Shown: positions 24,241 through 63,088, counted from the stretch's first letter. The stretch is 64,000 bases of DNA from Candidatus Omnitrophota bacterium (GCA_003141835.1 PLNR01000009.1:8307-72306), one strand, 5' to 3'. Notes: generated by a model not told the origin, from the letters alone. A program made the numbers and translations.

Positions 24241-24261
24241 AGTTGCCTTCTTTCCTATAAA

Positions 24262-39495: not shown

Positions 39496-40827
39496 TTATT
39501 TTGCCTGCATGTTCATCAGGAACTCGGCGTTGTTCTTGGTCTTTCCCAACCTGTCGACCAACAGCTCCATCGCCTCGTCCGAATTCATCTCGTTTAACAC
39601 CTTCCTCATGATCCAGATGCGCTTCAGTTCGTCTTCCTTGAAGAGCAGGTCTTCCTTCCTGGTGTTGGAACGCTTGATGTCAATGGCCGGGTATATCCTC
39701 TTCTGGAACATGTTCCTGTCGAGCTGCAACTCCATGTTGCCGGTGCCCTTGAACTCCTCAAAGATAACCTCATCCATGCGGCTTCCCGTATCGACGAGCG
39801 CGGTAGCGATGATAGTAAGCGATCCGCCCTCTTCGACTGCGCGGGCCGCTCCGAAGAACCTCTTCGGCTTATGCAGCGCGCTTGAATCGACGCCGCCGGA
39901 GAGTATCTTACCGCTGTGCGGGGCGACCGTGTTGTAGGCGCGCGCGAGGCGCGTTATCGAGTCGAGGAGGACAACGACATCCTTCTTGTTCTCGACGAGC
40001 CTCTTCGCCTTCTCGAGGACTATCTCGGCGACCTGTATGTGCCTTTCGGCCGGTTCATCGAAAGTCGAGCTGACGACCTCGCCTTTGACCGAACGCTGCA
40101 TATCGGTGACTTCCTCGGGGCGCTCGTCGATCAAAAGGACTATCAGCACAACCTCGGGATAGTTATTCATGATGGAGTTCGCGATCTTCTGGAGCAGGAT
40201 AGTCTTTCCGCTGTACGGCTGGGCGACAATAAGGCCCCTCTGGCCTTTTCCTATAGGGGTCAACATGTCCATGATCCTCATCGAAATCTCTTCCGTATCG
40301 GTCTCGAGGACATACCTTTGGTTAGCGTAGAGCGGCGTCAGGTTATCGAATAAAGTGCGCTCCTTCATCGATTCCGGATGCTCCATATTCACGACTTCCA
40401 CTTTGAGCAGCGCGAAATAACGTTCGCCCTCTTTGGGCGGGCGTATCTGTCCGCTGACCGTGTCGCCTGTGCGCAGGTCGAACCTCCTTATCTGGCTCGG
40501 CGAGACGTAGATATCGTCCGGCGACGGCAGGTAATTATAGTTCGACGACCGCAGGAAGCCAAACCCGTCCGGAAGGATCTCGAGGACGCCCTCGCCGAAC
40601 ATGAAACCTTCTTTTTCGGCCTGCGCCTGGAGTATCTTGAAGATCAGGTCCTGCTTCTTGAGCCCGCTTATGGAATTGACGCTCAGGTCCTTGGCGGCTT
40701 TAGTGAGCTCCTGGATCGTCATCTTCTTGAGCTTCGTTATATTGAAACCCGTACCCGACGGCTCTTTCGTCTCGGCCGCCTCTTTTGCAGGTTGTTTCCC
40801 GTTTGTCTCTTCGTTATTAGTCTTCAT
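39496..40827 (-). CDS. rho: Transcription termination factor Rho
   Basis: N-terminal RNA-binding OB region, a Walker A GKT ([10 protein letters not shown]) and the RecA-like core. 443 aa. Confidence 0.9.
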
Positions 40828-41335
40828 TCCATTCCTCCTCTTCCATGAACACCTTGAATGTTCCTCCCTCTTTTTGTGCCAACGCTAAAGCCTCTACGGC
40901 GCATCCCAGCAATTCATCACCCGAGAAAGCGAAAGAAAAATAATGCGCTATCCCGATCGAAGCCGAGATCTTCAGCCTGTCCGAGGCGAAATCGTGGTTC
41001 TTTAAAGATTCTATTATCTTTGACGCCTTCTCCTTCGCTTCTTTAAGCGTGATCTCGCGCAACAGGAGAAGGAACTCATCCCCGCCGAACCTTGCTAGAA
41101 GGTCCGCCGGCCTCAGCATGTGGTTCAGCACATTAGCCGTAGCGGCCAGCACCTCATTGCCGGTGTTCCTGCCGTACCACCGGTTGACCCTCTCCAAGTT
41201 GTCTATATCGACCAAAAGAAGCGCGATAGGCGGAAGTATTCTCTTGTTCTTTGATCCCGATATCTCACTGTTAAGGACATCGAGGACATCCTCTATCCCG
41301 TGAGGACAGTTTACGCTCCCACTAGCTTCTTCCAT
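40817..41335 (-). CDS. Minimal stand-alone GGDEF-domain protein (putative diguanylate cyclase), no sensor domain
   Basis: Intact GGDEF motif ([11 protein letters not shown]) preceded by a DxD-type metal site ([13 protein letters not shown]). 172 aa. Overlaps the coaE 3' end by 25 nt and the rho 5' end by 11 nt. Confidence 0.65.
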
Positions 41336-46036: not shown

Positions 46037-46363
46037 CTATTCCTTGATCTTTACGGCCGTCCCATAGGCATATACGTAGCCGCTGTAGGTGAAATACTGT
46101 ATGCCTATCACGGCATCGGCCCCCAATTCCTTTCCCGCGTCCTTAAGCTTGCTGTTTAGGGCGTCGAGATTCACTTCGCCGCCGCGGATCGAGACGATCC
46201 CTATGACCTTATAGGAATCTTTTATGTCCGCGGTGGTGAGGACAATGTCCTTCTGTTTGGCACTCTTTGTAATCATGGTAGAAGTAGGGGGCTGGGCCAT
46301 CACGGTTGACGATAATATGATAGCGCATAAAAGGACGGATATCAGTAATATTGTGCGTTTCAT
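46037..46363 (-). CDS. Small secreted YbjQ/DUF74 (UPF0145)-like protein
   Basis: Signal peptide MKRTILLISVLLCAIILSSTVMA, then ...YKVIGIVSIRGGE...GADAVIGIQYFTYSG... resembling the YbjQ_1 fold. Overlaps the 3' end of the second secretin gene by 4 nt. Confidence 0.5.
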   Translation of the reverse strand: MKRTILLISVLLCAIILSSTVMAQPPTSTMITKSAKQKDIVLTTADIKDSYKVIGIVSIRGGEVNLDALNSKLKDAGKELGADAVIGIQYFTYSGYVYAYGTAVKIKE

Positions 46364-47475
46364 AACACCGGTTCTCCTCTTGAGTCCAATATCGTGGCTG
46401 TCAGGAAGATCAACAGGTTCTTCTTGGTCTTATCCGTATGGTCGGTCGTAAATAAATATTTGCCTATGACGGGTATATCGCCCAGGAAGGGGATCTTCCT
46501 TTTTGTGACCTTTTCATCTTCCCTTATCAATCCGCCCAGGACAACGGTCTCTCCGCTCTTTACGACTACCGACGTCTGCGTAGTCCTCGTGTCGATGACC
46601 GGGTACCCTAAATCCGCGGGAAAGTCTGCCGAAGCGGAGATCGGGATCTGGTCGACCAGGACGCTAACCTCCGGGTGTATATCCATAGTGACCACTTTAT
46701 TGTCGCCGCCGACCGAAGGCGTGACTTCAAGGGATATCCCCGTGACCTTTTCCGCGACTTTGTATATCTCTACCATGACCGGCAAATCTGCGGTCCCGAT
46801 GTTCGTCCTCGTAAAATCAGACGCGTAAGGGACTATGTTGGCCACCTGGATGTTCGCCATCTGTCCCGACAATGTAGTGACCGAAGGCGAAGACAAGAGG
46901 CTGGCTTTTCCCTCTTCGATAAGCGCCTTTATATACGCCCTGTATATATCTCCCGAGTTTGTCATCCTTCCGATAGTCAAACCCAGTCCTGAAGTCTCGT
47001 TTGCCTGGCCGAATAAAGCTGCGGCGGTCTGGTCTTCGCTTATCGACCCGCTGTTAACCTCGCCACCGAAATTGCTCCAGTGGCCGTTCTTATCCATGGG
47101 GTATCTTTGCGCTTTATGGATCTCCCATTGGACGCCCAGTTCCTGCAGATTTGTGACCTGGATCTCCACAAACCTCGCTTGTATCTTTACCTGGGTAGGC
47201 CCGGTATCCCATAATTTGACCAGGTCCTTGGCCATCGACTGGTTGGTCGGGGTATCGGTAACGGTAAGCACGCCGGTTATCCCGTCATAAACGATCTTCC
47301 TCTCCGGATTTTCAGGTAAAGCCTCTTGCAGGTATTGCTCGATACCGGAACCCTCTCCGCCGGATGACGCCTCGGCATCGGCCGCCGCAAAGACCGGCCC
47401 GGATGCCAGTGAAAGAAGGATAACTGCGGAGTATAAGATTATCGATCTCAAAGAAATGCCGTATTTATATTTCAT
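46360..47475 (-). CDS. Minimal secretin (GspD/PilQ family), paralog B: signal peptide, one N-domain and the secretin domain
   Basis: The C-terminal secretin signature VVVKSGETVVLGGLIREDEKVTKRKIPFLGDIPVIGKYLF...KNLLIFLTATILD. Only ~370 aa, lacking N0-N2 domains. ~50% identical to the adjacent gene. Confidence 0.75.
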   Translation of the reverse strand: MKYKYGISLRSIILYSAVILLSLASGPVFAAADAEASSGGEGSGIEQYLQEALPENPERKIVYDGITGVLTVTDTPTNQSMAKDLVKLWDTGPTQVKIQARFVEIQVTNLQELGVQWEIHKAQRYPMDKNGHWSNFGGEVNSGSISEDQTAAALFGQANETSGLGLTIGRMTNSGDIYRAYIKALIEEGKASLLSSPSVTTLSGQMANIQVANIVPYASDFTRTNIGTADLPVMVEIYKVAEKVTGISLEVTPSVGGDNKVVTMDIHPEVSVLVDQIPISASADFPADLGYPVIDTRTTQTSVVVKSGETVVLGGLIREDEKVTKRKIPFLGDIPVIGKYLFTTDHTDKTKKNLLIFLTATILDSRGEPVL

Positions 47476-48596
47476 CTTATAGCCTCGCCTTTCGAGTCAA
47501 TGATGCTCGCCGTAATGAATATAAGCAGGTTTGTCTTGGTCTGGTTTTTGTAATCATACCGGAAAGCCTGCCCGAGCAAGGGGATGTCCCCCAGGACCGG
47601 GATCTTCCTCTTCGTCACGGTCTCGCTGTCCTTGATCAACCCGCCGAGCACTATCGTCGCCCCGCTGTCAACCGAAACGCTCGTCTGGGTGGTCCTCACG
47701 TCCACAACAGGCCAGCCTAACGCAGCCGGTATGACTTTTACCGAGGTGGTAGAAGTTACGTTGCCGAGATTACCGGTTTGGCCGCTCGTATTTAAGTTCG
47801 AGATGGGCACCTGGTTCCGCAGGACGCTTACTTCGGGATGCAAGTCCAGCGTTATGGTATTCGAACCCTCTGTCACATAAGGGGTCGCTTCAAGGAATAT
47901 ACCTATCGGTTTTTCGGCAAGCGTCAATTTATAAGTCCAGATAGGGAACTCAGCCGTTCCTATGTTCTCAAGAGTGAAATCCGAAACATACGGATAGGTC
48001 CTAACCACCTGTATGTTCGCCATCTGTCCGGAGATCGTGGTGATCTTGGGAGCGGAAAGGAGGTTCGCCTTCCCCTGCTGCTCTAAAAACCTGAGGTTCG
48101 CGATATACTGTTCGCCGTTTGCCAGGACTTTGGATATCAAAAGCTGTCCGGCGAAATTCCCTGTCACAGGGAACGTGGAAAGGAGATCGTTGTTCCAGTG
48201 TACGTTCTGGTAGTTTTGATGTCCGGGGGAGCCGATAGTGAACCCGCTATTGTTGCCGTTGGCGTTTGCCGGATGGAAAAAATCCCATTCTATGCCGAGC
48301 TCGTCCAGATCGTTGACCGAGATCTCCACGAACCGCGTCTCGATCATTACCTGTTTGGGGCCGACCTCGAACTCCTTTATCAGCCTCTTTATGAGCTCCT
48401 GGTTATCCTTGGTATCCGTGACGGTCAGGAGTTTGCTGCTGTCGTTATAGGTTATCTTCCTGCCATCTTGGCTGGGGAGGCTTTGCTCAAGATACTGTTT
48501 AATGTCGCGGCTGCCGCCGTCATCAGCCGCAAAGACCGCAACAGCCGGGATCGCCAAAAAGACCGATAACGCTGCCGCGATAAGTTTTCTTGTCAT
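47472..48596 (-). CDS. Minimal secretin (GspD/PilQ family), paralog A
   Basis: Signal peptide plus secretin signature VSVDSGATIVLGGLIKDSETVTKRKIPVLGDIPLLGQAF...TNLLIFITASIID. Tandem paralog of 46360-47475. Confidence 0.75.
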   Translation of the reverse strand: MTRKLIAAALSVFLAIPAVAVFAADDGGSRDIKQYLEQSLPSQDGRKITYNDSSKLLTVTDTKDNQELIKRLIKEFEVGPKQVMIETRFVEISVNDLDELGIEWDFFHPANANGNNSGFTIGSPGHQNYQNVHWNNDLLSTFPVTGNFAGQLLISKVLANGEQYIANLRFLEQQGKANLLSAPKITTISGQMANIQVVRTYPYVSDFTLENIGTAEFPIWTYKLTLAEKPIGIFLEATPYVTEGSNTITLDLHPEVSVLRNQVPISNLNTSGQTGNLGNVTSTTSVKVIPAALGWPVVDVRTTQTSVSVDSGATIVLGGLIKDSETVTKRKIPVLGDIPLLGQAFRYDYKNQTKTNLLIFITASIIDSKGEAIR

Positions 48597-49729
48597 TTCT
48601 TCTCTTTCGTTTCGGAGGTAGCCCCGAATTCCATCGGCGGTTTGATAGAATGGGTCGAACGCTGCCCGTATTTGAGTTTGTATGTCCTCGTGACAAGATC
48701 TTCCTTCTCTCTATTTGCCCTACTCGTCACATAAACGTAATTCGTCTCGACCTTATAAGCGAGCTGTGTGGTCTTGAATGCGATGTCGAGGACATCGAGC
48801 AAAGGCATCGGGGAAACGGTACTTATCGTGATCTTCATCGGCTGCTCTTTGGTAAGGGCCGCCAAAGATTTCTCGTCTATGACGATCGTTACGCCGGTCA
48901 TTTCGGTCAGCTGGCGGATAAGGTCCTGGACGTCGGCGTCGGTAACGGATATGGCCGGGACGATAACGCTCGCCATCTTCTCCTGGAGCTTCTTCCTTGC
49001 CTCCGCGTCGAGCCTTTCCTGCTCCGGGATCACCTCTTCGATCACCATCTCTTCCTTACTGGTCTTCTCAGGAGGCAGCCATCCCCTATCCACATCAAGG
49101 AGCGCCTTCTGTTCGGATGTATCTTTCTCCTCGTTGGTGACGTGCCTGTCTTTTACGACGTACTTGCGTTCTTCCTTGGTAACTTTTTCCCTGGTCGATA
49201 ATCCATCGGCCTGCTGCGCCTTGGCCAGCCACGCCTGCGCTTCCTGGTCGTTAGGATTGGCCGCGAGGGCGCTCTCAAAATCCGCTATTGCCGCGGAATA
49301 TTCTTTGCTCACGTAATTCGCTTTTCCGCGCTTGACCATAGAGCCGGTTATCGTCTCCGGGACGGTCGAAACTATCCCTTCCTTGCATAATTGGACATAA
49401 TGTACGGCTTGTTTATTCTTGGGGTCTATCTGGACTATCTTTTCGAAGATCTGCTGTGCGGTTTCGAAATTTTTAGCATCGTATTCGGCCTTGGCCTGGT
49501 TGAAGAGGTCCGTAACGATGGATTTGTGTTCGGCTTTCTTTTCCTTGGCCAGGTCCTGGGCTATTAACCTTGCCTCGACCGAATCTCCGGCCGAGCCCGA
49601 ATCGCCCACGGCGTAAACCTTGGCGCAAAAACCGTTACATAATGAGATAATAAAGAACAAACCAAAAGCCAAAAAGATGCAAACAAAGAACCTGCCTGCT
49701 GTTCTTTTAACCTCATTGGTTATACTCAT
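48593..49729 (-). CDS. Secreted TPR-repeat protein carrying a secretin-N (STN/N0-like) domain
   Basis: N-terminal signal/TM, TPR-like helical repeats (...AKAEYDAKNFETAQQIFEKIVQIDPKNKQAV...AAIADFESALAANPNDQEAQAWLAKA), then an STN-like domain (ISVTDADVQDLIRQLTEMTGVTIVIDEKSL...LLDVLDIAFKTTQLAYKVETNYVYVTS). It sits between the pilP-like gene and the secretins. Confidence 0.6.
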   Translation of the reverse strand: MSITNEVKRTAGRFFVCIFLAFGLFFIISLCNGFCAKVYAVGDSGSAGDSVEARLIAQDLAKEKKAEHKSIVTDLFNQAKAEYDAKNFETAQQIFEKIVQIDPKNKQAVHYVQLCKEGIVSTVPETITGSMVKRGKANYVSKEYSAAIADFESALAANPNDQEAQAWLAKAQQADGLSTREKVTKEERKYVVKDRHVTNEEKDTSEQKALLDVDRGWLPPEKTSKEEMVIEEVIPEQERLDAEARKKLQEKMASVIVPAISVTDADVQDLIRQLTEMTGVTIVIDEKSLAALTKEQPMKITISTVSPMPLLDVLDIAFKTTQLAYKVETNYVYVTSRANREKEDLVTRTYKLKYGQRSTHSIKPPMEFGATSETKEKK

Positions 49730-49734
49730 TTATA

Positions 49735-50409
49735 TCATCTCCCCTTTGTTATGACCCACTCTTTATTTTGGCCGTATAATACCACAGAATCAGTTTTTAT
49801 GTCAAGAACTTTATACTCTCCGACCATCTCATCCTTCTTTACCTCAATATCCCTATTATTCATTGAGTCGTGCAGCGTTACGACCAATTCCCTGCCCTTT
49901 GCGACCTTCTTATATTCGAGGGTAATCTGGCCGTCCTTGTTTTCTATCTTGAGAATCTTGCTATTGATCTCGATCACCTTAAAATCCTTGAACTTATCCC
50001 CCTTCTTTACGAAATATGTCTTGCCTGACCAGTTGATCTGGCCTATTATCGTCCCGTCTGACCTCGCGATAAAACCGTTGTACATAAAAGGAAGCGGAAC
50101 GTAGGAGACGGATGTTATACTTAGCTTTTCAGGTGTAAAGACCGGCGGCGGAGTTTCGGGCTTTATGAACATATTCTTGTCGAAAAGCGGCTGGTATCTC
50201 GAGATCGTATAAGGCGATTTAAGCAAATTCTCCGCATACAATAATGAATCGGGAGCGACGTTTGGCTCTTCTTTGGGCTGCGCAGCCCCCTTGCCTTCTT
50301 CGGATTGGAACGGGATCTGCTTCGGTTCAAAGACCGAAGACGATTTCCACATCACGAATAGCCATAAGATGAACGCGACTGCTGCTATTATCCTGGCTGG
50401 GCCTTTCAT
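49735..50409 (-). CDS. PilP/GspC-like inner-membrane protein (N-terminal TM, C-terminal beta-sandwich HR-like domain)
   Basis: TM ARIIAAVAFILWLFVMW, a Pro-rich linker (IKPETPPPVFTPE) and a C-terminal ~90-aa beta-rich domain (TYFVKKGDKFKDFKVIEINSKILKIENKDGQITLEYK). Sits in the pilMNOP-Q gene order. Confidence 0.5.
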   Translation of the reverse strand: MKGPARIIAAVAFILWLFVMWKSSSVFEPKQIPFQSEEGKGAAQPKEEPNVAPDSLLYAENLLKSPYTISRYQPLFDKNMFIKPETPPPVFTPEKLSITSVSYVPLPFMYNGFIARSDGTIIGQINWSGKTYFVKKGDKFKDFKVIEINSKILKIENKDGQITLEYKKVAKGRELVVTLHDSMNNRDIEVKKDEMVGEYKVLDIKTDSVVLYGQNKEWVITKGR

Positions 50410-51161
50410 GTCTTCTCCGCGGGCAGTATTGCGGCAACTATGACCAGCTCCGCAGTCAGGTCGCCGGGGGCCACGGCTTCCTCGTTAGAAACTTTTATTT
50501 TGAACGAATCTATCCTGAAAGGCATATCCGCGACGCTCAACTTCTGTATAAAATTGACCAGGTTGTCGTTCTTGCATTTCAGGACCACCCTGACCGGGAA
50601 CTCCATATAAAGGCCGCTCTCCGCCGATACCTTCTTGACTTCAAGGAATTCGACGGTAGATATCTCAGGCACCTTCGAGGCCAGCGCTATATTACCGACC
50701 TCCCCTATGATATCGAGCTGCTTGACCCTGAACGGGAGGTCTGCAGCATTCGGTATGTCATGTTCGTACCTGTCGAAACCGAGCCAGAACGGGAATTGGA
50801 AATTTATGGAGGCGCCGTCCTCTTTCATCTTATTCTGGACCTTGTATAATTCTTCCTTGAATTTAAGCGGGTCGCCGGCCTCCTTCGCCATCCTGGAAAC
50901 CGGTTTAGAGAAAAGTATGCCGCTTATATCCTTGTCGGCCTCACGCAGGGAATTGAGCTGCCTTTGGAGCCGGTTCTTCTCGCTGTTCAGGAAAGCGAAG
51001 CCCTGGTTCTTATAAACCTTGAGCTGCTGCTGTTTCTGCTCGACAGCGTGTTCGATCCTCAATCTCTCATACACGACGATCCCCAGGAAAAGGAAAGAGA
51101 CCAGGATGACCGCGCCCAGCGTAACTTTAGTAGTAAGCGATTCGCTCATGCCTTTTGGCAT
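50406..51161 (-). CDS. PilO-like (GspM-like) bitopic membrane protein
   Basis: N-terminal TM (VTLGAVILVSFLFLGIVVY), a coiled-coil segment, then an alpha/beta periplasmic domain. Lies directly after pilMN. Confidence 0.55.
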   Translation of the reverse strand: MPKGMSESLTTKVTLGAVILVSFLFLGIVVYERLRIEHAVEQKQQQLKVYKNQGFAFLNSEKNRLQRQLNSLREADKDISGILFSKPVSRMAKEAGDPLKFKEELYKVQNKMKEDGASINFQFPFWLGFDRYEHDIPNAADLPFRVKQLDIIGEVGNIALASKVPEISTVEFLEVKKVSAESGLYMEFPVRVVLKCKNDNLVNFIQKLSVADMPFRIDSFKIKVSNEEAVAPGDLTAELVIVAAILPAEKT

Positions 51162-51164
51162 CTT

Positions 51165-52811
51165 TTATTTCTTGCCTTTCGTTTCGCTCTTCTCGACCTT
51201 CGGGGCCGGCGCGTCGCCCTGCCCCTTTAGTTTGAACTTTATGGAAAAATCCCTGTACTGTCCCGCGCCTTCTTCCGTCTCGCGCGGCAGGCTCGCGTAA
51301 ATTATCTCCACCGAATCGAATAACGGCGATGCGGCGAGCTTGTTCTTGAACTCATTGATGGTCAGGAGGCTTGATGTCGTCCTGCCTTCCAGCTGGAAAA
51401 GGTCCTTGTCCTTGGAGATCGATGTCAACCAGGTCTCCTCCGGCAGGAGTTTCCTTATCTCCAATATCGCCTCGAGCGAGATGCTTTTCTTCACGGCGAG
51501 GCTCTCAAAAGGCTTGAGCTTGGCTTCGCTGGATTTTATGTCTTCCTTAAGCTTGGCTATATCCTTGTTGACGTTCTCATAATCCGACAAAAGCGAATCC
51601 AGGAATGTCAATTCCTTCCTCAGGGTCGATGACTGGAACCAGATATTATACGCTATCGTTATCGGTATAACGGCTATGAGGAGGCCGGCCGAGATTATCC
51701 AGAACTTCTCTTTCTTGAAATCCCTCTCTTCCTTCCTTTCGACCGGCAGCAGGTCTATATTGGTCGGGCACTTCTGGAGCAGGCGCAGCGCCAGGCCGAT
51801 CGAGGAGCCGAAGCGGGTCTGGAAATCTATATCCACCCTGAGGGCAGACGGGCATTTTATCTTTTGGCCGAGGTTGGCGCGCCTTATCTGCATGCCCAGC
51901 CCCTTCGACAGGAAATCCTCTATACCCTTGAGCTTCGATCCGCCGCCGGATAATATGATCTCATTGAAGGCGGTATCGCGGGCATGCTTGGTTTTGTAGA
52001 ATTCCATCGACTGGATGACGGACGACACGAGGTCGGAGACGACCGGGTTCAGGGCATTGATGAGGTCTTTGCCGGCCGGGGTGATGCTCGAGGGAACGAG
52101 GCTGTCCGAGGCGACTACCATCCCCTCCTTGCGCTTAAGCTCTTCCGCCTTATCGAAAGGTATGTTCAACTTCGAGGCGATCGCATGGGTCATCTCGTCG
52201 CCGGCGATGAGTATCGAACGGACCCAGAACCCCTTGTCCGAGATCACGATAAGGTTGGTCGCCTTGGCACCTATATCCAGGATCAGCCCCTTGCCGAGAG
52301 GCTCATTGTAAGTCACGGCGTTGAGCAGGGCCAGCGGGCTTACATCGACGAACTCTATATCCAGGTTGGTCCTCGCCACGTACGAGAGCGTGGTCTCTAC
52401 GATCTCTTTTTTCGCGGCGACGAAAAGGACATCCTCTTCCGGGCCCGCGCCGGCGCGGAAGATCTGGTGGTCCCAGCTTATCTTATCGAGGGGGAACGGG
52501 ATCTGCTGCTGGGCTTCGTATTTTATTATCTTGTCTATCTTGCCTTGCTGTATCTTGGGGAGCTTGAGGAAGCGGATGAACACCGACTGGCCCGAGAGGG
52601 AGAGCGCCAGCCTGCCGGCTTTTATCTTTTCTGTTTTCAGCAACCCCTCTACGCCGTCCCTTACCAGCGTGTCCCTTTTTTCCTGGTCGGCGTATTGGGT
52701 CAAATCAAAAAATTTCGCCCGAATAAGCTGGATGCCCTCGGGTGTCTTTTCCAGCTCGACGAGCTTAATCGAGCCTGCGCCTATATCGATGCCTAGAGCA
52801 CGTTTTCCCAT
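51165..52811 (-). CDS. PilM-PilN fusion protein (actin-like ATPase-fold PilM fused to TM/coiled-coil PilN)
   Basis: N-terminal ~350 aa carry PilM/FtsA-like motifs (LGIDIGAGSIKLVEL, IILSGGGSKLKGI). Then a TM helix (FWIISAGLLIAVIPITIAYNIWF) and a coiled-coil/periplasmic PilN-like tail. Confidence 0.7.
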   Translation of the reverse strand: MGKRALGIDIGAGSIKLVELEKTPEGIQLIRAKFFDLTQYADQEKRDTLVRDGVEGLLKTEKIKAGRLALSLSGQSVFIRFLKLPKIQQGKIDKIIKYEAQQQIPFPLDKISWDHQIFRAGAGPEEDVLFVAAKKEIVETTLSYVARTNLDIEFVDVSPLALLNAVTYNEPLGKGLILDIGAKATNLIVISDKGFWVRSILIAGDEMTHAIASKLNIPFDKAEELKRKEGMVVASDSLVPSSITPAGKDLINALNPVVSDLVSSVIQSMEFYKTKHARDTAFNEIILSGGGSKLKGIEDFLSKGLGMQIRRANLGQKIKCPSALRVDIDFQTRFGSSIGLALRLLQKCPTNIDLLPVERKEERDFKKEKFWIISAGLLIAVIPITIAYNIWFQSSTLRKELTFLDSLLSDYENVNKDIAKLKEDIKSSEAKLKPFESLAVKKSISLEAILEIRKLLPEETWLTSISKDKDLFQLEGRTTSSLLTINEFKNKLAASPLFDSVEIIYASLPRETEEGAGQYRDFSIKFKLKGQGDAPAPKVEKSETKGKK

Positions 52812-52892: not shown

Positions 52893-54128
52893 TTAATTCT
52901 TAGCGCGGGTCAATCTTCGCGCCTCTAATATCCGGTCGGCTATAACCTGCCTTATCTTCTCGTCTTTTGAGAAATTGTCCGCTAGTGAATAACAGAAAAG
53001 CGCGTCCTGGGCCTTCTGTCCTTTCAAGGGCTGCTTTAATTTTTTTGCCTTTTTGTACAGCAGGTCATCTCCTATTTTGAAATACCGGTTGGCTACGTTC
53101 GCCACGAAATCCCTGTCCTCGACTATGTTAAGATATTCCTCCATTTCCGCAAGTTTCGCGTCATCGCGGGGAATGGGGTTATCTTCGAAAAATCCTTTCA
53201 GCAGCAGCTGGACCCGGGATCTCGCAATTTCTTTTATGCTTGGTTCATCTAAACTCGAGAGCGCTTCGTAATAATTTATGGCATATCTGTAATAACCCAG
53301 CTTTTTTTCTTTCGCAACTTCTCCCGCCCTGTTCTCGTAATCCTTCGCTTTCGCCATGCATTTCGCGAGATATGCCTCCTTCATATCTTTATCGTCCATA
53401 TGGGAGGACGCCAAAGAAAGGGAATCAGCCGAGAAAACAACTTCCGGGAGGCCGTCTTTTGCGTTTAAGATCTTGGATGCTATATTACCGCCCCATATCT
53501 TTACCAGGAGATCTTTTGACTTATCGGCGTAAGCGGATTCCGGATAATCTGCTATTATCGAGAGCAGCATCCTCTCCGAATTAGGGTATTGCTCGATGTT
53601 GAAATCGACCTCTGCCCATTTATAGAGCTCCTTTGCCTTTCTGTCAACGGCATCTTTAAGGTCTTTTCCGGACTTCTCGGCAACAGCGGGGTCCAGCTCA
53701 TTAGCTTTGTTAAAATGCATTATCGCCATATCGGCGAGGCGGTTCTCGGGCGTGCTGTTTTTCAGGCACCACTCTGCCAGGGCAAGCTGCGCCTTAGCGT
53801 CTTTCGGGTCCGTATTTTCAAATTTCTTAAGATAGATATCCTGCACGGTATATAATTCACTTTCCGGGATATCTTCTTTCTTTATCTCCTTCACCCATGA
53901 TTTAGGGAATCTCACTGTCCCGCCGGTCTTTAGCTTGACTGTCATCTCAGTACCGGTCTCGTTAATTATCTTCCCGTTAAAAGTTTCGCTCCTGTTATTC
54001 AATGTGATTATATCGGCGAGGGCCGGCTTAAATCCATATAAAGGAAATACCAGGGAACAAATTAAAATAAACAACAAAAAAGAACTGCGCATGATCCCTC
54101 CTAAAAAATTGTTTTGGTAGCATTGCAA
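52893..54128 (-). CDS. Secreted TPR-like helical-repeat protein
   Basis: Signal peptide (SSFLLFILICSLVFPLYG) and a helical-repeat-rich body. No catalytic motif. Confidence 0.45.
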   Translation of the reverse strand: MQCYQNNFLGGIMRSSFLLFILICSLVFPLYGFKPALADIITLNNRSETFNGKIINETGTEMTVKLKTGGTVRFPKSWVKEIKKEDIPESELYTVQDIYLKKFENTDPKDAKAQLALAEWCLKNSTPENRLADMAIMHFNKANELDPAVAEKSGKDLKDAVDRKAKELYKWAEVDFNIEQYPNSERMLLSIIADYPESAYADKSKDLLVKIWGGNIASKILNAKDGLPEVVFSADSLSLASSHMDDKDMKEAYLAKCMAKAKDYENRAGEVAKEKKLGYYRYAINYYEALSSLDEPSIKEIARSRVQLLLKGFFEDNPIPRDDAKLAEMEEYLNIVEDRDFVANVANRYFKIGDDLLYKKAKKLKQPLKGQKAQDALFCYSLADNFSKDEKIRQVIADRILEARRLTRAKN

Positions 54129-56738
54129 CTACCTTAAATACAGGACACTGGCCTTCGGAAGGTACGTTATGGTTATATCCTCAAAAACCGGCGTCTCGCT
54201 GTAATCGTCATCCGAAGACGAGAGGTTCACCTTGAACACTTCAGAATTAGAAATACCTCCGATGGGCCCATTGATAGTCAGATTACCACTGAGCCCGCCG
54301 CCGGTATTTACCTGGACCAAGCACAGCTCCTTGCTTGCATCGGCCGTCTCGGGTATCGTAAGCGTCCAGGAGACCGTGCCCCAACGGACAGAACCGCCCG
54401 GACTGAAAGAAGGCGATTGGTAATAACCGCTGTCGGGTATGATCCTCAGGTCGTCCCAGCAAGGGTCGCAACTATTTCCGTATAAAACCAGGTACCAATA
54501 GGTGGTCCGCCAGGAATTAGGCTGGCTATTGGAATATGGCCAATAATTATATCTGTCACCCATGGCGGAATTAGCGCCATCGCTATGGAAAGGAACGAGG
54601 GTATAACCTGACGTCGGCGGACCACAAAGGTACGAACCCAGGCTCCAACCATTACTGTAATTATAATAACGATGCGATGCCGTTCCCAGCGCCAGCCAGA
54701 CGCGGTAGTTCGGCGTAAGAACACCTGGATTGCTGTTTACAACCAGTTTAAAAGTCTGGTAATCCGGAAATATCCCGTGATGCTGGTCATTATTCTGTTC
54801 CGTAGCCCAGCCGTAATAATGGCTGGGCGTCGTAGGAGGAGTATCGTAATGGTCGGTTATCGGGTCTACCAGGCCGTAGAGGTCCCCCATGCGATAAATA
54901 CGCTCATTCTGGGGCGGATCCAACAATTCAAGGAACACCCTGCTGTCATAAAAGTCCTTTCCCTCCTTCGGTTTGCTGTTGAACGTGTCACTCTTAGTCC
55001 AATCCCAAACGCCATCGGGGTCAATGGCGATAGAAGGCTTCCAGTAATCCGGCGGCCTTGTAATATCTCTCCGACCGGTATTTTTGTCATAATAAAAACC
55101 CCAGTGTTGTATCCACAGTTTGGCCTTGGAAGTTACGGGGGCCGAGTGAAATTCTACGGATCCGGTACTTTCATTCCCGTCGCCATAGACGTTCGGCTTC
55201 AAATATACGCGGAGCGAGAAGTTATTGCCGAACGCCCATCTGGCAGAATCGAGCGTGAATTTAGGAAACCCCGACCCCCAGAGTTTATTACTGCCGGTAC
55301 CGTTGAGACCTATATTCATCGGATACGTACTGGTTTCCTGGCTAAAGCTCTTCCAACTGTAACCGAATGAATTACTGTTGTCGTTATCTTCTTCAAAGTT
55401 ATCCCAATAACCCAATTTAAGCGAATTCGGGATAGTCTTGTAATTAGCCACTATGCTGCCGGCCGGATCCGCGTTATTCATTTCGACGGGGCAGCTGTTA
55501 AGCCATGTGGCTTTCAAGAAAACCGGTAGGCTGGGACCGGCAGCATAGGTATCGGCCCGGAATTGCTCCTTTGTAGTGTAATTCAATATCTTGTACACCT
55601 GCACGATGGCGGTTATTTGTTTCCGGGCCGGCCCGGCCGTCCCGGTCGAGGTTATCTCGTATATCCCGCTCGGATGGAAACAGAAATCCGTCGAATACCC
55701 CGATGGCTTGACCCTGTTCGGGTTGGCGTTATTCTTAATATTGGTCTTCTCCGTTGCGGTAAGCGCGGCCGCGGGCGATAAGTCTACTGTCTCTATGAAA
55801 TGGTCAAAACCCGCTACGGATACGCCGCCGGAAAACCCCTGGTCGTTCCATACCCTGAAAAAGGTTATCTCCCGCTCGGCCTTGATAGCATTGGCCAAAG
55901 CCAGGGCTTTATTGGTATCCGTTATTATCGGCCTTAAGACCGCCTGTAGGACCTCGGTGCTTGCTGAATTTATATTAATTGGGGCCTTGGCCTGATAAAT
56001 TGAGGAGGAGGGATTGCCCGAGATGTTCGGGTCGGCAAGTCCTGTCAAAGGCATAGCGGTAGTGCTTTCGCTGTTCTGGTCGATATAGCTGTTTACCGTT
56101 ATATAGGGCGCTATCGCGTTGTACTTAGCCGTTCTCGCGGCCAGGTTCGCGCTTGTCGGCGGGCTAGGGGGTATGGCGGAAATAATCTGTTCCTTGGTGA
56201 TGTAACCCCCGGCCGGGCGGTTCGCTATTATCGCGTTCCCGTCGCCTGCCTGCAACGGGCCTCCTAATATCGCGACAAGGTTTTCAAGCATTACGGCTTG
56301 CGGGGCAGTGGGGTTGTTGAGACCGATATTATCTACTACGTTTACGTTTATCTGGCTTGCGGTATCGGTTATCGTTACGGAGTAGGCGGCGGTATTGCCC
56401 ATCCCCACGTTCCCGAGGGAAATAGGGCCAATGGTAGCCGGTTGCGCTGGAATAACAGTATAAGGAGAAACACTGGTTGGCAGGGCAGTGAAATTTCCCA
56501 AGGCGGCGTTCCTGGCAGAGATGATGGCGAGATTAAGGCCGGCCTCGGCCGCGTCTTTGGCCTGCGCCGACACCGCCATATTCACGGCCGACTTATAATC
56601 AACAATCATATTGATAGTAAAGGACGTCCCGATGATCAGCATCATCGCGAGGATGCCAACCGTCACTATAAGGGCGATGCCTTTGTTATTTTTTCCGGTT
56701 CTCATTTTCATCTGCCTGAACGCCCTCGGGGGTAACAT
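54129..56738 (-). CDS. Giant GspK-like minor pseudopilin #2 (869 aa)
   Basis: GspK-type N-terminus (KGIALIVTVGILAMMLIIGTSF, no Glu5) and the GspK INxxxAsxEeL motif (ININSASTEVLQAVL). The C-terminus is paralogous to the 990-aa protein (SLKLGYWDNFEED..., ETPVFEDITITYLP). The true start is probably MKMRTG at about 56711. Confidence 0.65.
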   Translation of the reverse strand: MLPPRAFRQMKMRTGKNNKGIALIVTVGILAMMLIIGTSFTINMIVDYKSAVNMAVSAQAKDAAEAGLNLAIISARNAALGNFTALPTSVSPYTVIPAQPATIGPISLGNVGMGNTAAYSVTITDTASQINVNVVDNIGLNNPTAPQAVMLENLVAILGGPLQAGDGNAIIANRPAGGYITKEQIISAIPPSPPTSANLAARTAKYNAIAPYITVNSYIDQNSESTTAMPLTGLADPNISGNPSSSIYQAKAPININSASTEVLQAVLRPIITDTNKALALANAIKAEREITFFRVWNDQGFSGGVSVAGFDHFIETVDLSPAAALTATEKTNIKNNANPNRVKPSGYSTDFCFHPSGIYEITSTGTAGPARKQITAIVQVYKILNYTTKEQFRADTYAAGPSLPVFLKATWLNSCPVEMNNADPAGSIVANYKTIPNSLKLGYWDNFEEDNDNSNSFGYSWKSFSQETSTYPMNIGLNGTGSNKLWGSGFPKFTLDSARWAFGNNFSLRVYLKPNVYGDGNESTGSVEFHSAPVTSKAKLWIQHWGFYYDKNTGRRDITRPPDYWKPSIAIDPDGVWDWTKSDTFNSKPKEGKDFYDSRVFLELLDPPQNERIYRMGDLYGLVDPITDHYDTPPTTPSHYYGWATEQNNDQHHGIFPDYQTFKLVVNSNPGVLTPNYRVWLALGTASHRYYNYSNGWSLGSYLCGPPTSGYTLVPFHSDGANSAMGDRYNYWPYSNSQPNSWRTTYWYLVLYGNSCDPCWDDLRIIPDSGYYQSPSFSPGGSVRWGTVSWTLTIPETADASKELCLVQVNTGGGLSGNLTINGPIGGISNSEVFKVNLSSSDDDYSETPVFEDITITYLPKASVLYLR

Positions 56739-56823
56739 ATGCCGGTAATAATACCGCGTTTATCTTATGAATTTTATTTCTTTTCCTGGATAGGAAAAAG
56801 CCGCGATGCCGTTCCTTGGTACC

Positions 56824-58503
56824 TCAGCGTTGCCGTATTTGGGATCGGGGGTCCTGCCTCGGCGAACCTTCTTTATTGTTTACCTGGGGAGAAGGAACAT
56901 ATATTGCCAGCTTTCCGTCTCCCAAAAACGGCACTATACTACCCGCGCCGAATTTCATACCCTGTATTTCGATATTTTTTGAAGGCGAAACGCTCTTAAG
57001 CTTGGCTGAAGGATACAGATCTATTGCGCTGCCCTTTGGTAACTTTATGCCGTTTATTTCAGTATCCCTTGATAGTATCCCGCTCGATACCTTCCCCGAC
57101 TCAAAAAAGAATACCTTACCTGCGGCAAAAGGGAACCCCTGGATATCCTGGTCCTTGGGCAGATATACCACAAATAGCTTCCCTGAATCGCCGAAATACA
57201 CATCCGCGCCCTTCGGCAAAGCCACATCCTGCACCTTCTGGTCCTTGTCCAGGGCGCCTCCGTGTATCTTCCCGGATTGCAGCAGGCCTATCCTGCTCCC
57301 TTTAGAGAACGATAAACCCTGGACATCTATACTCCGGGTCAGGATGGCGTTATTGAGCTTTCCGGATTTATAGAAATAGGCGTCGCCTATGCACGGGATC
57401 CCCTGGATATTATGCTCCTGGCGCAGTACTGCTATCCTTATATTGCCCGTTTCGTAAAATAACAACCTCGTCCCCTTTTTAAAGTCTATGTCTTTTATTT
57501 TTTGGTCCTTAGCGAGCCTGGCCAGGGACAGCTGTCCCGAACCGTAAAATTCGACCTCTGTGCCTGCCGGGAACGCGATACCCTGGATGACCTTTGCCGA
57601 ATTCAGGGTCTCAGTGCTTGCCGTCTCCGCCCTCAAGTTGGATCTACCTTTTGAATACGGGAGAGCGCCCATATCATTCCTTGACCCGTCCGGCCCGTTA
57701 TACTTGGGATCGGGGTCGCCGGCACCGATACAGGGAGAATCGCCGTTAAGGTGGAAATCGCCTCCTTTGGGGGCCACGAATGCGGGATCGCGGGTGATGT
57801 CCTTCTCCCCTTTCTGGCAATTCTCAAAATCCTTGGCGTTATAAAAATCGTTATAAGCGAGGACCAGAGAGATGTCCTTCCTCGGCTCGTTTATCCCGGC
57901 GGGCTTAGATATCCCGCCGCCATATCCCGTGGAAGATAATATATTGATCCCGATCTTATTATTATAGAAGATCGAATTACGGACGGCTATCTCGGACGGC
58001 CCCCGCCACAACCTTAAGCCGCATTCGCTGTCGGCAAAAGTGCAGTTGACCACTTTTACATTAACGCTTGAATCCACCTTCAAAGATGCCAGGAGGCTCT
58101 TGGAGGTAAGTATACAATTGCTAATCGTAAATCCGTTGGCGCCCGAGACCTCAAGAGTTTCCTTATCGAACCGGAGGCTTAAGCCTTTTACCGCTATATT
58201 GACCAGCTTAGCACTCTGCGACGACACGCTTATCCCTTCGCCGCCTACCTCTAAAATAGTCTTATCGGCTCCCGCGCCGACAAGATTCATATCTGTCTTA
58301 AGTTTGAAACCGTCTTTCTCCTTATAGGTACCTTCCCCTATCGCTATCGTGTCGCCAGGCATCCCGCGCTCGACGGCTTCCTTGACCGTTTTATAATCAC
58401 CCGGAACGGCGACATCGTACCCGGGCGCCGCTTCGGAGCTCAGGGGCGCAAAAATGACCATACCGAAAAGCAATAACAGGGATATTTTTTTAGACATGAT
58501 CAA
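56824..58503 (-). CDS. Secreted parallel beta-helix protein with seven C-terminal ~30-aa tandem repeats
   Basis: Signal peptide, PbH1-like beta-helix region (NIAVKGLSL...FTISNCILTS...VVNCTFADSECGLRLW...VRNSIFYNN), then 7 repeats of the pattern xxDxxIQGxxFxxGxxxxFxxSGKLxxxxL. Confidence 0.55.
   Translation of the reverse strand: MIMSKKISLLLLFGMVIFAPLSSEAAPGYDVAVPGDYKTVKEAVERGMPGDTIAIGEGTYKEKDGFKLKTDMNLVGAGADKTILEVGGEGISVSSQSAKLVNIAVKGLSLRFDKETLEVSGANGFTISNCILTSKSLLASLKVDSSVNVKVVNCTFADSECGLRLWRGPSEIAVRNSIFYNNKIGINILSSTGYGGGISKPAGINEPRKDISLVLAYNDFYNAKDFENCQKGEKDITRDPAFVAPKGGDFHLNGDSPCIGAGDPDPKYNGPDGSRNDMGALPYSKGRSNLRAETASTETLNSAKVIQGIAFPAGTEVEFYGSGQLSLARLAKDQKIKDIDFKKGTRLLFYETGNIRIAVLRQEHNIQGIPCIGDAYFYKSGKLNNAILTRSIDVQGLSFSKGSRIGLLQSGKIHGGALDKDQKVQDVALPKGADVYFGDSGKLFVVYLPKDQDIQGFPFAAGKVFFFESGKVSSGILSRDTEINGIKLPKGSAIDLYPSAKLKSVSPSKNIEIQGMKFGAGSIVPFLGDGKLAIYVPSPQVNNKEGSPRQDPRSQIRQR
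56916..57561 (-). repeat. Seven ~90-bp tandem coding repeats (30-aa units) in the beta-helix protein gene
   Basis: Protein-level periodicity (KDQKIKDIDFKKGTRLLFYETGNIRIAVL / ...IQGIPCIGDAYFYKSGKLNNAIL / ...VQGLSFSKGSRIGLLQSGKIHGGAL / ...). Coordinates inferred from residue positions. Confidence 0.5.
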
Positions 58504-58512
58504 GGCCTCTCA

Positions 58513-61485: not shown

Positions 61486-62249
61486 TTCGCACCTACGATC
61501 CTGATGTAGTCGGTAAATGTCTTCGACTGGGTGCCGTCCCTGCTCTGGACGGTCAAAGACACTGAGACGGCGTCGGGAAGGCCGTCCGGTATCAACTTGT
61601 TGCCGTTGGAATCATAATTCTCGGTGGCGGCGCCGGTCAAGGCGTCCGAGCCTGAATTCCAGCTGGGCACGGTTGCGGTCGGCGCAGCGCCCGCGACGTG
61701 CCTGTAATAGTAGGTAAAACTCAGGGCCTTCACGTTGGTTGCGATCGGCGTATCCAGCGCGCCGGTATCGGCCGAGCCGTCAGCCCTTTTCGTGAAATCA
61801 TAGACGGCCGGCGCCCCGGGAACGTTGAAATACTCAAAATGGCGCATCAGCCTGTTATCATAGTCCCTTAACCAGTAGCCTACCTCACAGAGGTCCTGCA
61901 GGCCGGGATTATTGGCTATCGGCGCGACAAAATATATCTCATCGCCTGCGGAATTCGTTTTAAAACCGTGGGTGGCGGAATAGCCCTGGAACTTGGTCCG
62001 GTAAGATGTATTATTACTATTCTGCCATAGATAAGCGGAAGCCATCTCTTTCTCCATCATGTCGAGGGCAAAGCGCGCGTTCTGGTACATATCGAGGATA
62101 GTCTCGGCCTTGCGCCACGAATCGAGGCTGCCCTTAAAGACCATAAATATAGAGGTGACGAGAATGGAGAATATGACGGCCACGACCAGGATCTCTACCA
62201 AGGTCAGGCCGGAGGTGTTCCTCTTTATATGTCTATCTGGTCGCCACAT
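61482..62249 (-). CDS. GspJ-like minor pseudopilin (prepilin-type N-terminus)
   Basis: Class III signal G|LTLVEILVVAVIFSIL (prepilin peptidase site plus Glu5). Size and position after the gspI-like gene and before the gspK-like gene match GspJ. Confidence 0.6.
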   Translation of the reverse strand: MWRPDRHIKRNTSGLTLVEILVVAVIFSILVTSIFMVFKGSLDSWRKAETILDMYQNARFALDMMEKEMASAYLWQNSNNTSYRTKFQGYSATHGFKTNSAGDEIYFVAPIANNPGLQDLCEVGYWLRDYDNRLMRHFEYFNVPGAPAVYDFTKRADGSADTGALDTPIATNVKALSFTYYYRHVAGAAPTATVPSWNSGSDALTGAATENYDSNGNKLIPDGLPDAVSVSLTVQSRDGTQSKTFTDYIRIVGAK

Positions 62250-62589
62250 AGGTCGTGAATACCTGATGATAACCTTTGTTCCTATATTGCCAGCTTATTG
62301 TCAAGTCCACCTGCCTTAACGTGTCCGCGGATGCGCCTGTAGTTGAAACGCTCTGCGACCAGGTGTAAGCCGGGTCGGAAAATGAGCCTGTTGAAATACC
62401 TAAGACGGGAAATCCCGCGTTCCTCAGCTCTTCCATATGATTATGCCCGTAGATCGCCACTTGCGTGGAATTCACGGACCGCCTCGCCGCGTCGAAGCCT
62501 ATAGGGAAGAGGGACAATATCCCAACTAACCCTACGGCGAGTATCGCGAGCGAGATGACTATCTCTATTAAAGTGAAACCTTTTCTCAT
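62233..62589 (-). CDS. GspI-like (or GspH-like) minor pseudopilin
   Basis: MRKG|FTLIEIVISLAILAVGL prepilin N-terminus. 118 aa. Confidence 0.6.
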   Translation of the reverse strand: MRKGFTLIEIVISLAILAVGLVGILSLFPIGFDAARRSVNSTQVAIYGHNHMEELRNAGFPVLGISTGSFSDPAYTWSQSVSTTGASADTLRQVDLTISWQYRNKGYHQVFTTYVATR

Positions 62590-62602
62590 GATGCTTAAAG
62601 GA

Positions 62603-63088
62603 CTACCTTCTCCAGTTGGTTATATCGTCGCTGCCGCCGTTATTATCAGTTTTGTTGGGCCCGTTTGACCATATATCGACATAATTAGTGAAACCGCTGC
62701 GCGAGCTATCGCTTGGATTAGCGTAATGATAGGCGCTGCCCCAGGAATCGAGTATATTGCTACCGCTCACTTCATTCGTCTGGAAATTCATGTAAGGGCC
62801 TGACCAGTTGACAGTGCTTAAACCATAGGTCGTCAGATTAGCAGTTGAAGTGAGAGAGCTGTATAGTTTATCGATGCCGCTGGGCGGATAGATCCCCTCA
62901 TCCGCCTGGAGCATCCCAAGCGCCGTTTCAAGGGCGGCTATCATCGCCCTGGCCTTGGTAACCATCGCGCGCTCTTTAGCTTTCTGCGCGGCGCCGGTTA
63001 TGAGGCCTGCTAATATCAGGATGATCGTCATGACGACTATCAGCTCTATTATCGTGAACCCGCCTTTACGTTTTTCCATTTTAACCAT
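62603..63088 (-). CDS. gspG: Major pseudopilin GspG-like
   Basis: KGG|FTIIELIVVMTIILILAGLITGAAQKAKERAMVTKARAMIAALETAL is a near-canonical GspG N-terminal helix. 161 aa. Confidence 0.7.
   Translation of the reverse strand: MVKMEKRKGGFTIIELIVVMTIILILAGLITGAAQKAKERAMVTKARAMIAALETALGMLQADEGIYPPSGIDKLYSSLTSTANLTTYGLSTVNWSGPYMNFQTNEVSGSNILDSWGSAYHYANPSDSSRSGFTNYVDIWSNGPNKTDNNGGSDDITNWRR

Follow-up and report, generated by a model that had tools for sequence, protein, structure and literature searches.

In a stretch of 64,000 nucleotides (nt) from a Candidatus Omnitrophota bacterium (GCA_003141835.1 PLNR01000009.1:8307-72306; hereafter the window), the secretin of what appears to be a type IV filament cluster is encoded in pieces. 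Comparison with relatives shows that an ancestral single polypeptide, composed of a signal peptide, tetratricopeptide repeats (TPR), an N0 domain, one Secretin_N domain and the barrel, underwent gene fission in this lineage. The upstream product, here called the adaptor, kept the TPR, N0, strand beta1 of Secretin_N and a short conserved tail, while the downstream product gained a signal peptide of its own. In addition, a single tandem duplication of the secretin half took place at the base of the clade, before its diversification, and both copies have been maintained. The secretins of type II (T2SS) and type III (T3SS) secretion systems, type IV pili (T4P), Tad systems and filamentous phage are regarded as homo-oligomers of a single gene product that has N0 covalently attached. 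An earlier note on the window had described three adjacent genes, two of them encoding minimal secretins with signal peptides. The listing of open reading frames (ORFs) and Pfam confirm these genes on the minus strand, the two minimal secretins being complete; lengths are given in amino acids (aa):

48593-49729, minus strand: TPR-N0 adaptor, 378 aa (ORF listing, Pfam and NCBIfam, alignment, AlphaFold2 (AF2), Foldseek)
47472-48596, minus strand: secretin paralogue 1 ('position 1' clade), 374 aa (ORF listing, BLASTP, Pfam, NCBIfam, PDB search)
46360-47475, minus strand: secretin paralogue 2 ('position 2' group), 371 aa (ORF listing, BLASTP, Pfam, NCBIfam)

Fission of the secretin gene within its N-domain

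That this is a split secretin, as the earlier note had proposed, is borne out by relatives in which TPR, N0, N-domain and secretin reside in one protein (Akkermansia Amuc_1098 and syntenic Omnitrophota) and onto which the pieces map collinearly. With adaptor residues 195-378 as query, a HMMER search through 1.8 billion representative proteins yielded 117 matches, 27 of which also match the secretin half: 22 proteins of 560-964 aa do so end to end, and five are shorter or partial (382-509 aa). Pfam analysis of 11 long fused relatives detected Secretin in all 11, TPR in most, STN or GspD_N0 in nine and AMIN in one; P0103 and P0126 show only a FecR_C match over the N0 region. The adaptor and either window secretin align with these proteins in the same order, with few residues between the matches.

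Fused secretins also occur at the syntenic site. Two of them, P0095 (GCA_043800345.1, locus L037, Candidatus Omnitrophota) and P0110 (a metagenome contig, locus L038), are 30-35% identical to the window secretins and 24-29% identical to the adaptor. Both loci have the order PilMN, Amuc_1100-like, one fused secretin, polA, (glgA), coaE, rho, (L31, RF1, prmC), which is the downstream order of the window, and neither a second secretin nor the gene for a ~105-aa protein that follows secretin 2 in the window was found in them. In Akkermansia, and in other Omnitrophota at this site beside polA-glgA-coaE-rho, a single protein of 660-920 aa combines TPR, N0, N-domain and secretin. As a side observation, polA is called as two genes in L038 (11763-14333), a 5'-3' exonuclease of 287 aa and an exonuclease/polymerase part of 531 aa; this split may be real or an assembly error.

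The junction in the fused proteins reveals the site of the cut. Here, N0 is followed by the motif ExxETRxYxLxxG (E(T/M)ETRxYxLxxG), a low-complexity linker of 0-90 residues and 'TIKDVLE..GVPWPEGSKIFLD'. The segment after the linker, 'TIKDVLE..GVPWPEGSKIFLDxRTGTLIVRNTPxN...', corresponds to alpha1, beta2, beta3 and alpha2 of Secretin_N. The window adaptor ends with 'EDLVTRTYKLKYGQRSTHSIKPPMEFG...', and the two secretins continue right after their signal peptides with '..IKQYLEQSLP' and '..IEQYLQEALP', respectively. Thus, as the junction alignment and the secretin starts show at the level of sequence, the gene was cut inside Secretin_N, in a variable, low-complexity and predicted-disordered loop between beta1 and alpha1, so that the adaptor and secretin products share one domain. 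The beta1-alpha1 linker of the fused proteins thereby became the fission site of the split lineage. This linker is close to zero in P0145, which shows a plain beta1-loop-alpha1 join, and in P0134, whose alpha1 stretch is poorly aligned. The earlier note had assigned an STN/N0-like domain to the C-terminus of the TPR protein and one N-domain to each secretin, which would put the break between the two. The location of N0 on a separate chain is favoured by fused homologues, AF2 and Foldseek, and an N-domain is indeed present on each secretin; however, the break lies inside this domain, which is incomplete on the secretin chains because its beta1 resides on the adaptor:

48668-48697, minus strand: orphan Secretin_N strand beta1, LVTRTYKLKY, aa 345-354 of the adaptor (alignment, junction alignment, rejoining test)

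Several lines of evidence support this assignment. Neither secretin chain carries a complete Secretin_N domain: the profile match starts at position 12-14 of 69 and reaches 22-28 bits (cutoff 28.2), beta1 being missing. Without the adaptor tail, the Secretin_N match of both isolated N-domains starts at position 12-16. Joining the tail in silico to the N-domain of secretin 1 gave 43.6 bits over profile positions 1-69, as compared to 31.7 bits (12-69) for the N-domain alone and 31.0 bits with a shuffled tail. The tail is also the most conserved part of the adaptor, with T347, Y350, L352, Y354 and R357 invariant in 16 homologues down to 31% identity. AF2 modelling of the adaptor alone assigned a pLDDT below 50 to residues 348-378; the model of fused P0095 shows a strand 'TTRIYR' at residues 290-295 (pLDDT ~74), disorder at 303-375 and then alpha1-beta2-beta3-alpha2 and the barrel. 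Because the fused architecture is found widely in relatives and the secretins of the split family form a single clade, fission and duplication are both derived.

The adaptor carries a probable N0 domain and the TPR module of the secretin

The adaptor consists of a signal peptide, probably cleaved after a conserved VYA at ~aa 44, TPR helices at ~aa 47-217 (Pfam TPR_2 E 2e-8 and others), a conserved LLDVDxxWLPP motif, an N0/STN-like domain at ~aa 255-336 and the C-terminal tail.

48722-48967, minus strand: N0/STN-like domain of the adaptor, aa ~255-336 (AF2, Foldseek, homology to STN-positive fused secretins)

The Pfam matches to N0 families stay below threshold (STN, PF07660, 20.3 bits vs 28.4; GspD_N0, PF21305, E 0.015). 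Nevertheless, other evidence favours the assignment of aa 255-336 to N0. In the HMMER scan, residues 195-378 retrieved STN-positive fused secretins at E 1e-9 to 1e-14, and the homologous region of the fused relatives passes the Pfam STN threshold. AF2 predicts the succession beta-alpha-beta-beta-alpha-beta-beta for aa 255-336 (pLDDT 65-73), and Foldseek returned, among generic TPR matches, N0 of Neisseria PilQ (4ar0, E 1.8e-3, TM 0.52) and the signalling domain of FpvA. A sequence search of the PDB with the adaptor found generic TPR proteins only, plus the N0 of GspD at E 0.16. Because the fused relatives carry N0 and it resides here on a separate chain, N0 is supplied in trans, in agreement with the earlier note. 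DotD of the Dot/Icm type IVB secretion system, an N0-like lipoprotein, shows that an N0-like fold can occur on a polypeptide of its own.

Many fused relatives (P0085, P0092, P0101, P0109, P0140, P0147 and others) as well as P0067-P0069 contain a low-complexity insertion of up to ~90 aa within N0, between strands 2 and 3. It is additional to the beta1-alpha1 linker and absent from the window adaptor.

A role of the TPR protein as pilotin, also suggested previously, is not supported. No conserved lipobox was found in the adaptor, as the Cys residues of the signal region vary in an alignment of 16 homologues, and NCBIfam revealed no family-level similarity to pilotins (PilW/PilF, TIGR02521, 18 bits vs 154; BamD, 18.7 vs 81; TadD, none). 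Rather, the TPR array represents the N-terminal module of the ancestral secretin, distal to N0. It sits where AMIN domains sit in other PilQ proteins, and P0110 combines AMIN, TPR and N0. TPR proteins or small periplasmic proteins that act together with a secretin are likewise encoded beside it in the cases of PilF/PilW/Tgl, TadD (RcpA-TadD, PDB 8odn), MshN and BfpG/TcpQ (PDB 9u5s). In contrast to partners of the PilF/PilW type, the window adaptor carries the N0 of the secretin plus a fragment of the secretin's own N-domain and is thus a detached secretin piece. Its 69 homologues are all 249-463 aa long, and so none of them is a secretin fusion; the two shortest (249 and 254 aa) span only about two-thirds of the query. 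All come from Candidatus Omnitrophota/Omnitrophica wherever the source is named.

The secretin half was duplicated once and both copies were kept

The two window secretins align over their full length with 44% identity and 62% similarity (BLASTP E 3e-102); the paralogy seen by the earlier note is therefore real, its figure of ~50% identity being too high. Both match Pfam Secretin (PF00263) with 144.5 and 134.5 bits (E 3e-42 and 4e-39; cutoff 27.5), and PDB secretins of T2SS, T4P, T3SS, Tad and phage are matched by sequence at E 5e-24 and weaker. Both miss the family cutoffs of GspD (TIGR02517, 177 and 171 bits; cutoff 351), PilQ (TIGR02515, 164 and 143 bits; cutoff 284) and MshL (TIGR02519, 145 and 146 bits; cutoff 250). 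Each has a signal-peptide-like N-terminus, after which the chain begins at helix alpha1 of the N-domain. Common to both are the remainder of the N-domain, the barrel motifs, the PxLGDIPxLG loop and the terminal strand, with 85 columns conserved in both; an S-domain is absent from both. One feature sets them apart:

47745-47798, minus strand: ~18-aa Ser/Thr/Gly/Asn-rich insertion in paralogue 1 only, between the PEVS and GGL strands (BLASTP gap, clade consensus, length statistics)

The median PEVS-GGL spacing is 63 aa in paralogue 1 as compared to 45 in paralogue 2 and 46 in the fused relatives, both of which lack the insertion. Paralogue 1 is thus the derived copy at this site, and paralogue 2 keeps the ancestral loop length. 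Through alignment with the PDB sequence matches, we take this region to be inner gate 2 of the GspD structure.

To assess conservation, we compared the contexts of four homologues and 32 loci from species-representative genomes, with ORFs typed by BLASTP. The split, two-secretin order is present in all 33 loci with enough downstream DNA (31 distinct, as L002 and L003 repeat L016 and L029), with adaptor identity down to 31%. The conserved order reads PilMN, Amuc_1100-like, ~225-aa protein, TPR-N0, secretin, secretin, ~100-aa protein, (peptidase_MA in some), polA, and it recurs in the more distant locus L041 with its 485-aa adaptor. A split adaptor accompanied by a single secretin was not found: among the distant unfused adaptors, P0073 has two secretins, and the contigs of P0079 and P0078 are too short to tell. 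The earlier note had named a single-secretin locus as the sign of a trivial duplication; within the clade, the 33 loci and L041 all carry two copies.

In a neighbour-joining tree, the position-1 and position-2 copies fall into separate groups. A bootstrap tree (100 replicates; 23 fused secretin halves as outgroup) recovered the split-family secretins of both positions as monophyletic with respect to the fused ones in 100/100 replicates and position 1 as monophyletic in 94/100, and it puts duplication and fission on the same stem branch. On average, position-1 copies share 54% identity with one another, position-2 copies 53%, and copies from different positions 44-45%, same-genome pairs included. 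Relative to three orthologous loci, dN/dS values lie between 0.11 and 0.16 (0.11-0.12 for paralogue 1, 0.12-0.16 for paralogue 2). Both ORFs are uninterrupted, and the same is true of their orthologues in all related loci that no contig end truncates; neither paralogue is the pseudogene that the earlier note had considered. The separate position groups, the identities and the dN/dS values together indicate that the duplication is ancient and single, and that both copies were kept. Their order is invariable, stop and start codons overlap in most cases, and purifying selection acts on both with equal strength. In the window, the junctions adaptor/secretin 1, secretin 1/secretin 2 and secretin 2/108-aa gene each consist of a 4-nt ATGA stop/start overlap.

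These data also bear on a trivial origin of the arrangement, namely a tandem duplication of recent date, a pseudogene among the copies or a single gene broken up by an assembly or frameshift error. The only prior hint of this was the presence of adjacent ORFs in different frames, and nothing spoke in its favour after testing. By contrast, the three-gene arrangement recurs in independent assemblies from many studies, with the adaptors diverging as far as stated above, each secretin has its own signal peptide, the paralogues have diverged to 44% identity and group as orthologues by position, and all parts are under strong purifying selection. We therefore regard an artefact as extremely improbable. 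Pseudogene, frameshift and recent duplication are each ruled out by the intact ORFs, the conserved loci, the tree and dN/dS.

Partner proteins and affiliation of the locus

The pieces of the secretin are flanked by the following genes:

46037-46363, minus strand: small secreted protein, 108 aa (weak YbjQ/DUF1471-like signature)
49735-50409, minus strand: bitopic protein, 224 aa, PilP/GspC-HR-like as suggested by position and motif
50406-51161, minus strand: PilO/GspM-like protein of the Amuc_1100 family, 251 aa (NCBIfam Amuc_1100_fam E 2e-8, GspM E 6e-4; Pfam Amuc_1100 on orthologues)
51165-52811, minus strand: PilM-PilN fusion of the Amuc_1101 family, 548 aa (Pfam PilM_2 E 2e-34, PilN E 4e-9; NCBIfam Amuc_1101_fam E 1.5e-79)
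52893-64000, minus strand: upstream part of the cluster, encoding a 411-aa secreted protein, an 869-aa GspK/PilX-like giant minor pseudopilin, a 559-aa beta-helix protein, a 990-aa minor pseudopilin with PA14, three small pseudopilins and a GspF/PilC platform protein that runs off the window

By homology, the window locus is the Omnitrophota form of the Amuc_1098-1101 type IV filament cluster of Akkermansia and the Planctomycetes-Verrucomicrobia-Chlamydiae (PVC) group. Such a cluster combines T2SS-like pseudopilins, a PilMN/PilO/PilP-like platform and a TPR-bearing secretin. The Amuc_1101- and Amuc_1100-family genes of the window show clear homology with scores below the equivalog cutoffs (268 vs 650 bits) and are thus related proteins, not equivalogs. 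On the NCBIfam model of Amuc_1098 (NF042912, 805 positions), the adaptor covers positions 162-370, and the best secretin stretches listed extend from 661 (paralogue 1) or 725 (paralogue 2) to 803-804; all three miss the cutoff of 750 bits (adaptor 44.6, paralogue 1 155, paralogue 2 130).

The N0 domains of T2SS and type IVa pilus (T4aP) secretins contact the homology region (HR) of GspC or PilP. In the window, the presumed N0 partner is the 224-aa protein, a bitopic protein with two small beta-rich domains and the motif LPFxYxGFI..dG..iGQI....kTYFVKKG. Gene position, topology and this beta-rich motif suggest that it is PilP/GspC-HR-like; searches by Pfam, NCBIfam and PDB sequence did not detect similarity to the PilP/GspC HR. 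In L037, the Amuc_1100-like gene (7732-8964) encodes 410 aa, and no separate PilP-like gene was called; in split-type loci, its counterpart encodes ~250 aa and a second gene the ~225-aa protein. A fusion of PilO-like and PilP-like parts is possible in the L037 lineage.

The ~105-aa protein is encoded directly after secretin 2 in split-type loci (L001-L036, L041) and only in these. It features the conserved motif YKVxGxV...ADxVIGIxYFxYSGYxYAYGTAVK, has weak YbjQ, selenium-binding-like and DUF1471-like matches and is probably an accessory subunit.

Among the upstream genes, the two giant minor pseudopilins (54129-56738, 869 aa, and 58513-61485, 990 aa, both on the minus strand) share an N-terminal prepilin-like hydrophobic segment; weak GspK/PilX_N signatures are present in one and a PA14 domain in the other. 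Their orthologues measure 774-1028 aa in orthologous loci, and fused-type loci have proteins of 714-914 aa with HHH_3 at the same position.

Reassembly of the pieces and alternative explanations

The explanation that we judge best overall, and consider probable if only by a little, is a machine of the Amuc_1098-1101 type whose secretin was split and duplicated and whose pieces reassemble in a shared channel complex. In the periplasm, the pieces would come together by fragment complementation, the beta1 tail of the adaptor inserting into the incomplete N-domain sheet of the secretin subunits. N0 and the TPR array would thereby be suspended beneath the pore, just as they are in the fused protein, and the N0 thus held in trans could dock the PilP-like protein of the PilMN/PilO platform. 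The paralogues would co-assemble into one channel complex, either as a mixed ring or as two rings sharing the adaptor, with paralogue 1 contributing an enlarged inner-gate loop. We consider such co-assembly most probable, because there is one adaptor and one platform, because neither copy has been lost in any genome examined and because the genes overlap. A mixed two-paralogue ring is plausible; a strictly mixed one is possible, though not likely. The same holds for the fuller version of an obligate complex, in which the two paralogues would alternate in one ring, the adaptor would provide N0 and TPR by beta-strand complementation and the ~105-aa protein would be a fourth subunit.

Several points weigh against this model. 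To our knowledge, all secretins studied so far are homo-oligomers, which leaves a mixed ring without precedent. At an 80% threshold, no more than three columns are conserved within each paralogue group yet differ between the groups, so that there is no clear signature of complementary interface specialization. Moreover, joining the adaptor tail to the N-domain of secretin 2 extends the Secretin_N match to position 2 at a gain of only 1.5 bits, and the monophyly of position 2 is weak (43/100 replicates).

Alternatively, the paralogues may form two separate homo-oligomeric channels that became subfunctionalized after the duplication and both dock via the shared TPR-N0 adaptor, for instance one pore serving a pseudopilus with its minor pilins of 870-990 aa and the other serving secreted substrates or DNA. 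Such an arrangement would agree with the homo-oligomeric nature of all known secretins, with the retention of every core secretin element by each paralogue and with the unusually large pilins carrying PA14 domains in the cluster. The ~18-aa insertion in the predicted inner-gate loop of paralogue 1 alone would suggest a difference in gating or cargo. However, the operon has a single adaptor gene and a single platform, no genome examined has only one copy, and fused-type relatives manage on one secretin in a similar cluster. The fixed order, the overlapping stop and start codons and the perfect co-retention in all 34 distinct complete loci also fit obligate partners better. We regard two channels as possible, though not likely.

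It is also conceivable that one paralogue forms the pore and the other serves as an assembly or scaffolding factor, i.e. a secretin-like 'pilotin' or transient template, needed after the covalent TPR/N0 part was lost. No lipoprotein pilotin candidate is present in split-type loci, and the placement of duplication and fission on one stem branch suggests a functional link between them. On the other hand, both copies are equally conserved (54% and 53% identity within their groups) with similar dN/dS, and both retain the outer-membrane-inserting PxLGDIPxLG loop and the terminal strand, which would be unexpected for a mere chaperone. An assembly factor therefore appears improbable to us. What weight is left after the mixed ring, the two channels and the assembly factor goes to a shared complex arranged in another way; this finer division overlaps with the estimate given above for the shared complex as a whole.

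Comparison with known systems and significance

The closest described counterpart is the Amuc_1098-1102 region of Akkermansia, where a PilM-N fusion (Amuc_1101) and a PilO-like Amuc_1100 protein likewise precede the secretin. PilQ/Amuc_1098 is a single protein with N-terminal TPR and a C-terminal secretin and is the most abundant outer-membrane protein of the organism (PMC4960237). Its domain order, TPR, N0/STN, one Secretin_N and secretin, is that of the window pieces. In contrast to Amuc_1098, the window has separate genes cut within Secretin_N, two ancient secretin paralogues and an additional ~105-aa secreted protein. The fused secretins of L037, which belongs to the same phylum, and L038 resemble those of the window in their surroundings, with PilMN and Amuc_1100-like genes upstream and polA, coaE and rho downstream, but they are single polypeptides in single copy, keep the disordered beta1-alpha1 linker and lack the small downstream gene. 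With T4aP PilQ and T2SS GspD (PDB 6ve2, 6w6m, 5wq7, 6hcg, 4ar0), the window secretin shares a barrel with PxLGDIPxLG loop, an N3-like domain directly under the barrel and a probable N0; those proteins are single-gene homo-oligomers with covalent N0 and have N1/N2 or AMIN instead of TPR.

Full-text literature searches did not find heteromeric, paralogous or tandem two-secretin systems, and papers on T4aP- and T2SS-like loci of Omnitrophota do not mention secretins (PMC10066038; 10.1101/2023.11.21.568195). In the passages covered, a survey of type IV filament evolution gives TadBC fission and pilin and ATPase duplications as examples and mentions neither fission nor duplication of a secretin.

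As far as gene content and alignments go, the split and duplicated arrangement is an apparently undescribed variant of a known PVC-type secretin locus, its parts being homologous to Amuc_1098-1101. The evolutionary dissection appears well supported; its mechanistic consequences are unproven. It amounts to a dissection of one secretin by evolution, in which pore and inner-membrane-coupling functions were genetically separated. The cut in a disordered intradomain loop predicts a natural fragment-complementation interface with an invariant strand of 10 residues, which could possibly serve as a tool. Every genome examined has kept all the pieces, a hint that the pore may consist of several different proteins instead of one. 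That both paralogues are obligately retained makes a heteromeric ring conceivable, and such a ring would change views of secretin symmetry, gating and assembly. If true, an alternating two-paralogue ring with N0 in trans would be the first natural multi-chain secretin.

Further features of the window

A stand-alone GGDEF protein of 172 aa is encoded between rho and coaE (40817-41335, minus strand); it is present in L001 and missing from several other syntenic loci. Omnitrophota are ultra-small and probably host-dependent, and attachment or predation is the function proposed for their pilus- and T2SS-like loci (PMC10066038; 10.1101/2023.11.21.568195). A block of lower GC content (16821-31176, minus strand; 36-44% vs ~53% elsewhere) harbours four large ORFs. 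The largest product, of 2304 aa, contains three PA14 stretches and beta-helix, Glucodextranase_B, Ig-like and laminin-G domains; the others are a protein of 1325 aa with CBM30/CBM11/CBM4_9, a PGAP1-like alpha/beta hydrolase of 766 aa and a protein of 382 aa without matches. This block looks like the adhesin/glycan-binding cargo reported beside T2SS-like loci of Omnitrophota.

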